Source: a virus. From it: 11,573 nt of DNA. The stretch lies in UHGV virus genome UHGV-1580203; one strand, given 5' to 3'. Shown here piece by piece: positions 3,001 to 6,000 of the stretch; the stretch's first letter is position 1; each line of letters opens with the position of its first letter. The position numbers are program-made.

Positions 3001-6000
3001 GCATAATGTCTTTGGTCTTCGCTTCGACAGACTCCATCAGGGAGCGTTTGCCGCTGAAGTCATTATCTTCAAAATCAGCGGTCTGGTTTGCTTCAATCGT
3101 GATTTTACGGACTGCCGCAGCCGCTTTTGTTGCTTGAATGGCGTCACCATTAGCATCAAAGCCCACAAGGTAGTCGGCCCAGTCTTCGATCCATTCTGCC
3201 AGTGACCTCTGGGAGTTACGCTCGCCGTTAACAGACAACAGAGCAGAGAACGGTGCTGTCTTTTTCAGTTTGAGAGTGGCAGTGTTATCTGCGTGACCTG
3301 GCTCATCAATAGTACCCAGGTTAAGCACACTGACGGCACGCATATTATCGGCATCGATAAAGCAGCGGGTGCCTTCATCTGCAAGATCTTTAGAATAACG
3401 GGTAAAATCATCGATGCTGGCAGTGGAAAGTGCACCACGGAAACGGAAGCGATTTAAATTAAATTTTTCCAGATCATGAATGCGGAAATTCTCAGGCAAT
3501 GCCACAGCATCGGCACCAATCTTACTGATAATTTCATTAACACCCTGAGCAGAAATAAGGGCATGGATTTGATTAATTGCGGTTGCGTCTAAGTTCTGAG
3601 ACATAATAAGTCCTCACTATATAAAGATATTCAGTGATGAGATAAATAATCAGTTTATTACGAACGATATTAACGACCTGCTGCGCGGAGTTTTCCGTCA
3701 GGTTCACCGGCAAGAGTCAGTAATTGTCCCTGGTCTTCCTGCAGAATAGTCAGGCGACCACCGCGATTGACATACATCGGCGTTTCGGTGGTGTCTTCTT
3801 CGGAAATTTTCCCGCGGTTAGTTGGGCGAACATATGAGAGTTTGTGTTTGATTTTCACACGGTTCTCATCAAACGGTTCGATTTCCAGATTGAGTGAGAC
3901 CTTCCCTTTGGTTTTCGTGTTCATCACACCGGAAGCGACCTCACTGAGAACTGCGCCGATTTTGGTTTCAAATACGCCGCCGTCCAGCTCCCCGATAAAT
4001 GCCTGCACATCAGTACTGCGTTCGCTAGCCATTTTGCTGCTCCTCATCATATCGACCCTGCAAGGTCGGTTGGTTTCTCCACAAAACAGAGAAGAACACC
4101 TGCGGTGGCAGCCGCCCGGATGGATTGGGTTATGAGCCCGTCGTCCGGTGATGCTCTTCTCTGTTTTGTAAAAAGAGCGGTGCCAGCCGGAAGCAAGTGT
4201 ACAAACTGGTACCGCCAAAGCAGTGGCTGTTGTGGTGCCGGGTGCCTCCCGGTGCCTGGCGAAGGTTGCACACCAGGCGGGTGGGTATCCACAGAAGGTC
4301 GACTGTCAGCCTCAACCTTAACCCGCGTGCGCTGAGCCGCATTCACCACAACGCTAAGGATTCTCTCTGGTTGAAAATACTTAGCTGTTATGTGCCTGCT
4401 TTTAGCCACATCAGGCGAGGTGGACCTGGTTATTCCCCAACAACAAGGATTCGGTTAATCTTGATACCCCCAATAACATGGTGATTATTTAAGATGGACA
4501 AATTTGATAGAAGTGCACAAAGGCAGTTGTTACAAATACTGTATGATGCTCATCCTTATGAAATTTCTGATGATGCGTTGCAGTCTGTTCGTGACGCATT
4601 TGGAGATGATAATGTCCTAATTTCGAACTTAATTTATCTCGAAGAACATGGCTTGATTAAGAATGCTCTTGATTATTACTTGGATGGCATAAATATAAAT
4701 ATTCCTGAATTAAGAATTACTAAAGATGGAATTGATTTCATTCGTGATGATGGAGGTCTTAAAGCTATTCTTGGGATTATGACAATAAGATTGCATGATG
4801 AGACTCTCTGTGAACTTGAACGTATCATCAATAGTTCTACTTCTGCCACGACTGAAGATAAGAAGAAATTACTCTCTCAGCTTCGAACGCTTCCTGCCGA
4901 CGCCATAAAACAGCTGACGATTCGATTACTTGGTCAGGGGCTTGACCATCTGCCGGACGTATTTCACGTAATTCAAAAAGCCCTCCATTCTCTGTAAATT
5001 CTGATTCTGGTCGGATTAGACAGAATCGTCCCCATCCGACCTGCTTACTAAGTAGAATCCAGAATTCGTCTTGTTGGTTGGTGCTGATAAAAAATCCATT
5101 AGGATGAACGTAAGCACAGAATATGACCATAGAACCCTCTTTTGTTACGGGGATACTAAGATTGTTAAAGAGCTAAGCGTCCTGTAGGGCGCTTTTTTGT
5201 TGCTAACGAATCATCCTGGACTTCATATGCCCCAGGCGGCTACTTCGTGGGCGTCCTGCCTGTTCGTTTTTGACATTTACTGACTGCTTACGACACATGC
5301 ACCGTGTTGCAACCAGATTTTGTTGTAATCCTGTAGTTGGTCTGGAACAAAAGATAAAATTAAATTGCGAGATATGCAAGTGATATTTGCGAGATATGCA
5401 AATTTATAGGTAATAAAAAGCCACCTTTCGGTGGCCGATGGATGGGATATTGAGGTTAATTATGTCTCTTAAGGGTTTGCGACTGACTGATTAAGACCTT
5501 TCCAAAGACCATGAATCGGTGTTCGTTTTCGCTAGTAATTCCCCATTCACGGTAAATCTGGTTATCAGAAATCACCAGCAGTTTGTCAGGAATCATTTGA
5601 AGTCTTTTAACGTATATTTTGTCATCAAAACCAAAGACATATATACCATCACCATCAAACTGATTGATGCTGACATCAACGAAGATGAGATCTCCTGGCT
5701 CAATGGTTGGACACATACTGTCCCCACGAACGTTGATAACTTTGATGTGATTGGCTGGTCGTCCGCCGAACATTGATACAGCATTATCAGTTCTGTATTC
5801 GATGGCATGAATCACATCAATGACATCACCGCCCTGGATAAGGCCATTTCCCGCACTGGCACTGATATCCAGCATTTCAATACGGAACACATCCTTCACC
5901 TGCGCAACATCCTCATTATTACTGTTTTTATATACAGTATTACTTTTGTGGGCAGAGGTAAAGAGATCAGCAATATCAACACCTAAGCTCTTGGCAATAT

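Follow-up and report, generated by a model that had tools for sequence, protein, structure and literature searches.

The stretch of DNA analyzed here, 11,573 nucleotides of the virus genome UHGV-1580203 taken at full length (the window), comes from a lambdoid prophage of the SfII/SfIV/SfV/CPS-53 type and spans its left arm and its immunity region. The transcript of the leftward early promoter, pL, carries a boxA, the RNA element that is the binding site of the host NusB-NusE(S10) dimer. The window opens with a tRNA 3' end (1-49). The minus strand then carries int, xis, yfdT/S/R/Q and yfdP (3670-4032), the latter assigned by its match to phrog_204 (E = 1.2e-49) and by the annotation of its relatives. 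A structured non-coding block (4045-4490, minus strand) also lies on the pL transcript, and next to it is a gene convergent with pL, a moron at 4494-4997 on the plus strand. The moron encodes 167 amino acids and belongs to phrog_3983 (E = 2.6e-59); an identical gene is annotated by PGAP in Escherichia coli NCTC86. The repressor gene cI (5456-6148, minus strand) has its terminator at 5436-5419, and OL and pL lie just downstream. A direct-repeat search located the OL operator repeats, TTGCGAGATATGCAA, at 5365-5379 and 5387-5401 and a third copy, that of OR, at 6169-6183; the pL hexamers, read from the sequence, are TTGCAT (-35, 5379-5374) and TATCTT (-10, 5356-5351) on the minus strand. After cI, the plus strand carries cro, the cII-like ymfL, O, a PerC-like gene, RusA and others.

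The boxA, GCUCUUUAACAA in the transcript, occupies 5162-5173 on the minus strand, the same strand as pL, and starts at about +170 relative to the promoter position read from the sequence. An earlier inspection of this DNA (the sequence-only reading) had noticed a 12-nucleotide boxA match downstream of OL/pL, in the place of a nutL, and both observations were reproduced. The match to GCTCTTTAACAA at 5173-5162 is exact and is the sole one in the window even when two mismatches are allowed, and the chance expectation for the exact 12-mer on both strands of the window is about 0.0015. Furthermore, GCTCTTTAACA(A) at these positions fits the functional gammaproteobacterial boxA consensus GYTCTTTAANA (PMC5725501) at 11 of 11 positions, and boxA is unpaired in the predicted minimum-free-energy fold of 5205-5150 (minus strand). 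Because about 0.6 chance copies of the 12-mer are expected per 5-Mb genome, a lone exact match is not decisive, and the weight of the argument rests on conservation.

We looked for the other parts of a lambda-type antitermination system, which the sequence-only reading had not found at this locus, and did not find them either. No hairpin is predicted 3' of boxA within 5161-5100, so there is no lambda-type boxB at that place, and the downstream sequence UCUUAGUAUCCCCGUAACAAAAGAGGG contains no GU-rich boxC and no UGUGUGGG-like run. N-type antiterminator families were absent from the PHROGs matches of the 19 open reading frames (ORFs) of the window and from the Pfam matches of the 10 leftward and moron-region ORFs, and no arginine-rich N-terminus was seen by eye in the first post-leader ORFs of 57 relatives. 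As for a rightward nut site, neither GYTCTTTAANA nor GCTCTTTA or CGCTCTTA was found on the plus strand, including the region downstream of cro. Two small ORFs were considered and discarded. The 31 amino acid, Arg/Lys-rich MCRKQSVNVKNEQAGRPRSSRLGHMKSRMIR, inside ORF 5379-5203, was a candidate mini-N; it overlaps the covarying leader RNA described below, transcription begins downstream of its start in SfIV-type relatives, and it has no family match. The 97 amino acid ORF 5130-4837 is probably no gene, having no PHROG or Pfam match and being left unannotated by PGAP in the identical sequence of NCTC86. In open-access text we found no paper describing either the boxA of this pL leader or the leader RNA; the paper on the SfIV genome treats no antitermination other than that by Q and gives orf35/36 as unknown (PMC3851460).

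The hairpin that adjoins boxA had been taken by the sequence-only reading as part of an rrn-like arrangement, hairpin and then boxA, and this claim was not supported. A terminator scan and folding identified the hairpin as a textbook intrinsic terminator, that of the convergent moron, with an 8-bp stem (stem-loop 5175-5194, plus strand; 5194-5175 when read along pL) followed by TTTTTTG (T-run 5195-5200). The stem has a G.U pair on the plus strand versus a C.A mismatch on the pL strand, and the predicted folding energy is -11.5 kcal/mol on the former versus -7.5 kcal/mol on the latter. Among 20 distinct variants of the hairpin, 19 are stabler on the plus strand (means of -10.2 vs -6.2 kcal/mol), and Rfam gave nothing in the region except weak matches of terminator type, on the plus strand only. 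We conclude that the hairpin terminates the gene at 4494-4997 and is probably not a boxB analogue, and that the apparent rrn-like order of boxB and boxA arises mostly by chance, from a terminator being read backwards. On the pL RNA the hairpin can fold weakly, at -6 to -7.5 kcal/mol, and may have a second use there; because it is weak and has no U-tract in the pL direction, pL transcription can pass it.

Hairpin and boxA belong to a junction unit of about 45 nt, made up of an A-run, the hairpin, boxA and then AAUCUGG, and comparison with related prophages bore out its conservation. A 66-nt version is present in 1093 of the 5426 complete E. coli genomes, and the hairpin-boxA unit was likewise found in several Klebsiella phages and in the phages SfIV, PhiR29 and Kati. 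The unit lies at a mosaic junction. Upstream of it are at least five different repressor/operator sets, that is, immunity types; downstream, similarity ends directly past ...AACAATCT, where at least four unrelated convergent genes are found, and what follows AATCT after boxA differs among the relatives. The moron that adjoins the unit belongs to phrog_3983 in the window; EC9952, PhiR29 and Klebsiella have a zinc-ribbon/coiled-coil family at this place, CFT073 has a secreted protein, and SfIV has its orf36. In relatives, boxA is found 100-130 nt downstream of a TTGACA-N17-CATAAT promoter. An additional immunity variant was seen in E. coli NCTC86 (L377, 419-1495), in which a ParA-family gene lies between the repressor gene and pL and the leader, boxA and moron downstream of it are as in the window.

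The zinc-ribbon moron proteins of E. coli and Klebsiella share 44% identity and the adjoining units 90%, all 12 bases of boxA are kept, and the differences are confined to the hairpin loop. Sets of sequences were also collected by anchors other than boxA itself, either the hairpin stem or the leader core GGCAGGACGCCCACG, with up to two mismatches allowed in boxA. Such sets contained GCTCTTTAACAA, GCTCTTTAAAAA and a single GATCTTTAACAA, with no decayed copies; the change in GCTCTTTAAAAA, the sole recurrent substitution, falls at the degenerate N of GYTCTTTAANA. As a negative control, 47 unrelated terminator-like hairpins from IMG/VR were inspected, and none had a boxA after it. In a set of 109 non-redundant pL leaders, boxA was present within 140 nt in 33. 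Nearly all of these face a convergent ORF (32 of 33) and have a reverse terminator (31 of 33), whereas 42 of the 76 leaders without boxA are followed by a longer sense ORF. In one group of Rac-like prophages (L170), boxA is kept in spite of a different hairpin upstream that is not a terminator, and the zinc-ribbon moron named above and the structured block lie downstream of it.

From boxA (5162) to the start codon of yfdP (4032), the pL transcript runs for about 1.1 kb without a family-supported ORF, yfdP being the first convincing sense ORF of the operon. In this untranslated stretch the moron is read in antisense, with a segment that is poor in G and has C>G at 4800-4500; the structured block, which is STnc100-like, comes next. 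Rfam model RF02076 matches the block at 4350-4231 (minus strand) with 35.6 bits, below its gathering score of 47, and over positions 31-147 of the 206 in the model; STnc100 is a prophage small RNA family related to PasD (bioRxiv 10.64898/2026.05.13.724894). On the same strand follow a terminator-like hairpin with UCUUUUU (4215-4177, the site extending to 4170) and a long hairpin (4170-4080; -55.8 kcal/mol, z = -5.4) that ends just before the yfdP ribosome-binding site. The SfV record has an annotated rho-independent terminator in pL sense in the interval from orf33 to orf32, the homologue of yfdP, and the homologous structured block follows directly downstream of that terminator. The core hairpin of the STnc100-like block is widespread in enterobacterial prophages. 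It lies 0.7-1.1 kb downstream of boxA in 27 of 45 prophage-type units, but in species-representative genomes of other species a boxA precedes no more than 3 of 93 such blocks. The suggestion of the sequence-only reading that the block might be involved in the antitermination is therefore only partly upheld: boxA often serves block-containing cassettes, the block does not need boxA, and a general coupling of the two is rejected in the direction from block to boxA.

The first element of the pL transcript, directly after pL and about 30 nt upstream of boxA, is a 62-nt leader RNA that folds as a three-way junction (5267-5206, minus strand; P1 5267-5263/5210-5206, P1b GGC/GCC, P2 CCUGG/CCAGG). In an alignment of 49 diverse sequences (A3), 96.4% of the cells are paired, versus 74% after shuffling and at most 51% with slid partners. 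Changes on both sides are seen in 8 of 13 pairs, P1 is wholly replaced between lineages (ACGAA/UUCGU, GUCAUC/GAUGAC, CCACC/GGUGG), and G.U pairs occur on the pL strand only. The covariance model of the leader matches the window at 5195-5274 with 95.3 bits, and the leader has no match in Rfam 15. It was found in SfII, SfIV, SfV, phiNP, ST64B, ZF40, YeP1-3, AH07, SPN3UB, SEN34, mEp237 and many IMG/VR contigs. There is no annotated N gene in the early-left regions examined around it and no classical N-encoding phage among the 49 leader matches. A second copy, comparable to putR or nutR, was found neither as an inverted repeat nor with the leader model; each locus has a single leader, and none was located in the pR operon.

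This leader is comparable to the put RNAs of HK022 and HK639, which are not known to need Nus factors or boxA. Like them, it is the first element after pL, is of similar size and belongs to lambdoid phages whose examined regions showed no N; in HK639, putL is annotated and putR is not, which would parallel the single copy of the leader. However, put consists of two tandem stem-loops and not of a three-way junction, and a put covariance model (R1, built from HK022 putL and putR and HK639 putL, which it recovers at 74-97 bits) scored no better than noise on the window and on 14 relatives, even with the filters off. Membership of the put family was thus rejected. The words CGAAC...CAGGAUGA that the leader has in common with put give no support, since CCAGG pairs with CCUGG in the leader RNA. 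For the related phage LLS, which is reported to have no N homologue, a put-like RNA has been speculated upon (PMC12315714, 2025). For an antitermination based on RNA, the leader, which the sequence-only reading had not noticed, is a better candidate than the block at 4045-4490, and it may be the early antiterminator that this reading suspected. We also entertain, as a tentative and rather doubtful proposal, that phages of the SfV/SfIV/ST64B/phiNP/ZF40/mEp237 group would share a two-part, protein-free antitermination, in which the leader RNA would act as a non-homologous analogue of put and boxA would be added where a convergent moron/small RNA cassette makes a long untranslated stretch.

A second leader module, AACGUUCCGC...AUAAGGCA, follows the leader RNA in many relatives. 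It is a small covarying hairpin, also met as AACGTTCCGC-hairpin-GCGATAAGGCA, with the stems CGCTGG/CCAGCG, CGCCAG/CTGGCG and CGTCGG/CCAGACG. It was located in mEp237 (L483, ~2560-2600), at many IMG/VR loci and in the Klebsiella phage L004 (~2975-3005), in which it lies directly upstream of the boxA unit.

The closest analogues of the boxA on pL are the boxA-only elements that protect transcripts from Rho, namely those of rRNA operons, of CRISPR arrays and, possibly, of the T7 early leader. BoxA alone shields the long non-coding CRISPR transcripts of Salmonella and Vibrio from Rho, according to chromatin immunoprecipitation and reporter experiments (PMC7665894). In the prophage, as in the CRISPR and rRNA cases, a consensus boxA is found shortly after the promoter and opens a long transcript that is not translated, neither a phage protein nor boxB would be needed, and resistance to Rho is the proposed effect. 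The two differ in that the transcript here is that of a prophage pL and its untranslated part consists of the antisense of a convergent gene plus a block resembling a small RNA; moreover, the rrn leaders have a GU-rich boxC of which no equivalent was found here, and the function demonstrated for CRISPR arrays is inferred for the prophage. With the nutL sites of lambda and P22 the element shares its distance of 100-200 nt from pL, its strand and its boxA sequence, but it lacks the 3' boxB hairpin, an N-like protein and a nutR counterpart.

T7 carries an identical 17-mer, GCTCTTTAACAATCTGG, at 813-829 of its genome (L480, 434-450), where the E. coli promoter A3 lies 63 nt before it and gene 0.3 lies 95 nt after it. 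Both phages thus have this sequence on an early transcript made by the host polymerase. T7 is not known to have an N protein, and its early-leader boxA, whose function is putative as well, is followed by an RNase III site. In contrast to the prophage, T7 is lytic; a translated gene follows its boxA, and a convergent gene is lacking. The same 17-mer was found in many phage contigs of IMG/VR, where a strong promoter of sigma-70 type precedes it by 40-100 nt. Among them are T7-like phages, in which it lies upstream of ocr, and L221, in which it lies upstream of a tRNA-like sequence; in several of these contigs the 17-mer is preceded, at 1-2 nt, by a hairpin that is not a terminator. A phage early leader with boxA but with neither N nor boxB is therefore no peculiarity of this prophage.

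The pL leader of this prophage carries a real, conserved boxA in a new context; the sequence, strand, conservation, surroundings and predicted accessibility of the unit are established by the observations given above. The explanation that we favor, and to which we give an even chance, is by analogy that the boxA on pL of this N-less lambdoid prophage is a functional boxA-only, Nus-dependent anti-Rho element, with Nus binding, exposure to Rho and antitermination as the steps that we infer. The unit would be placed where pL transcription leaves the leader and enters the slot occupied by a convergent moron. There, the nascent BoxA would recruit NusB/E, together with NusA, NusG and SuhB, onto the RNA polymerase, and the polymerase so loaded would resist Rho across the 1.1 kb of untranslated RNA without N or boxB. 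Since the sense-strand boxA is real and N, boxB and a rightward nut were not found, a Nus-dependent and N-independent role, as the sequence-only reading had put it, is the best reading, stripped of its rrn-like hairpin. If this explanation is true, the phage would directly borrow the anti-Rho machinery of rRNA operons and CRISPR arrays, and the passage of pL transcription across convergent morons that are expressed in the lysogen would be accounted for. About one in five complete E. coli genomes carries the unit, and the phages concerned include Shigella serotype-converting phages and ST64B-like phages of Salmonella, for which there is no recognised early antiterminator; the covarying leader RNA beside boxA offers a concrete new candidate for that missing function.

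Several observations weigh against an anti-Rho role. The close relatives SfII, SfV and mEp460 do not have the boxA unit, and SfV does without it although a small gene converges there too and about 600 nt of its RNA are untranslated. Among the leaders without boxA, 21 likewise face an antisense ORF, by a crude measure of ORFs. Most of the E. coli copies are near-identical, so their conservation reflects in part the recent spread of one block, and hairpin and boxA keep a fixed distance of 0-1 nt, which suggests that they are inherited together. Finally, complexes of the rrn type are not known to suppress intrinsic terminators well, and the structured block contains a terminator-like hairpin with a U-tract; therefore boxA alone may not explain the expression of yfdP to int. 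The phage mEp460, which shares the immunity region and comes from a collection described as Nus-dependent, was considered as a source of information on Nus dependence and set aside as uninformative here, having neither boxA nor the leader RNA.

Some of these points would also be expected if boxA were an inert passenger, either a relic of an ancestral nutL or a linker at the junction where morons are exchanged, kept owing to a recent spread of the block by recombination and not through use. The breakpoint between the mosaic segments falls exactly at the unit, identity exceeds 95% in most copies, hairpin and boxA always travel together, and SfII, SfV and mEp460 are viable without boxA. Yet we regard such a passenger as unlikely, because boxA is intact in Klebsiella copies whose flanks and loop have diverged and whose moron is only 44% identical, because it outlasts replacement of the hairpin, because it has changed recurrently only at the consensus N and was never seen decayed, and because the 17-mer recurs in the early leaders of unrelated phages, T7 included. 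In another reading, the conserved sequence would act on the plus strand, as UUGUUAAAGAGC, an element of the 3' untranslated region of the moron mRNA close to its terminator, and its likeness to boxA would be fortuitous. This sequence does lie just upstream of the terminator stem at a fixed spacing, most of its occurrences are at the end of a convergent gene, and the plus-strand fold can pair UUGUUA with UAACGA around the terminator. An accidental match at 11 of 11 consensus positions with variation at N only is nevertheless hard to credit, and the 17-mer also occurs in sense orientation in leaders without a convergent gene (T7 and other phage contigs), which makes this explanation very improbable.

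Granted that BoxA is functional, its function could be other than protection from Rho. One candidate is a repression that depends on Nus factors. In suhB, a BoxA within 50 nt of the start codon represses expression (PMC5725501), and in the window an ATG with the Shine-Dalgarno sequence AAAGAGGG is found 31 nt downstream of boxA, at the head of ORF 5130-4837; alternatively, BoxA could chaperone the folding or processing of the STnc100-like RNA, in keeping with the block downstream of 27 of the 45 prophage-type units. Nevertheless, the ORF, dismissed above as a gene, also overlaps the moron and is absent from the relatives, in which the sequence differs from 3 nt past boxA, and 18 of 40 hairpin-type units have no block. 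We therefore hold a repressing or chaperoning role to be improbable. A somewhat broader function would be exerted if boxA and the 62-nt leader RNA formed one composite nut-like site, the RNA working alone like put or with a phage protein, and giving full antitermination through intrinsic terminators as well. The leader RNA is strongly covarying and always the first element on pL, it occurs in SfV-, ST64B-, phiNP-, ZF40- and mEp237-type phages with no annotated N in the regions examined, the proposal made for LLS is of the same kind, and a terminator-like structure precedes yfdP. The two elements are separable, however: 76 of the 109 leaders have no boxA, and the boxA units of Klebsiella L004 and of L170 have no leader. 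As the leader is also no put homologue by covariance model and has no second copy in the pR operon, a composite site seems to us quite improbable. The boxA-only, anti-Rho explanation accordingly remains the one that we prefer among those considered, at the even chance given above.

Some minor features of the window were noted as well. A promoter-like sequence, TTGATA-16-GATTAT, lies at 4461-4497 on the plus strand and ends 6 nt before the moron ATG at 4494, so the moron mRNA may be leaderless. The O-like replication gene contains six iterons, TCAAAATCTGACNCG, at 15-nt spacing (7683-7805, plus strand), presumably the replication origin; a mir-5880 match in Rfam at this place was rejected as spurious, being caused by the iterons. 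Lastly, a 15-mer, TGTGGAGAAAC(C/T)AAC, is present in sense orientation on both early transcripts, at 4069-4083 (minus strand) just upstream of yfdP and at 7030-7044 (plus strand) at the ymfL/ymfM junction, which may be due to chance or may represent a common translation-initiation region.

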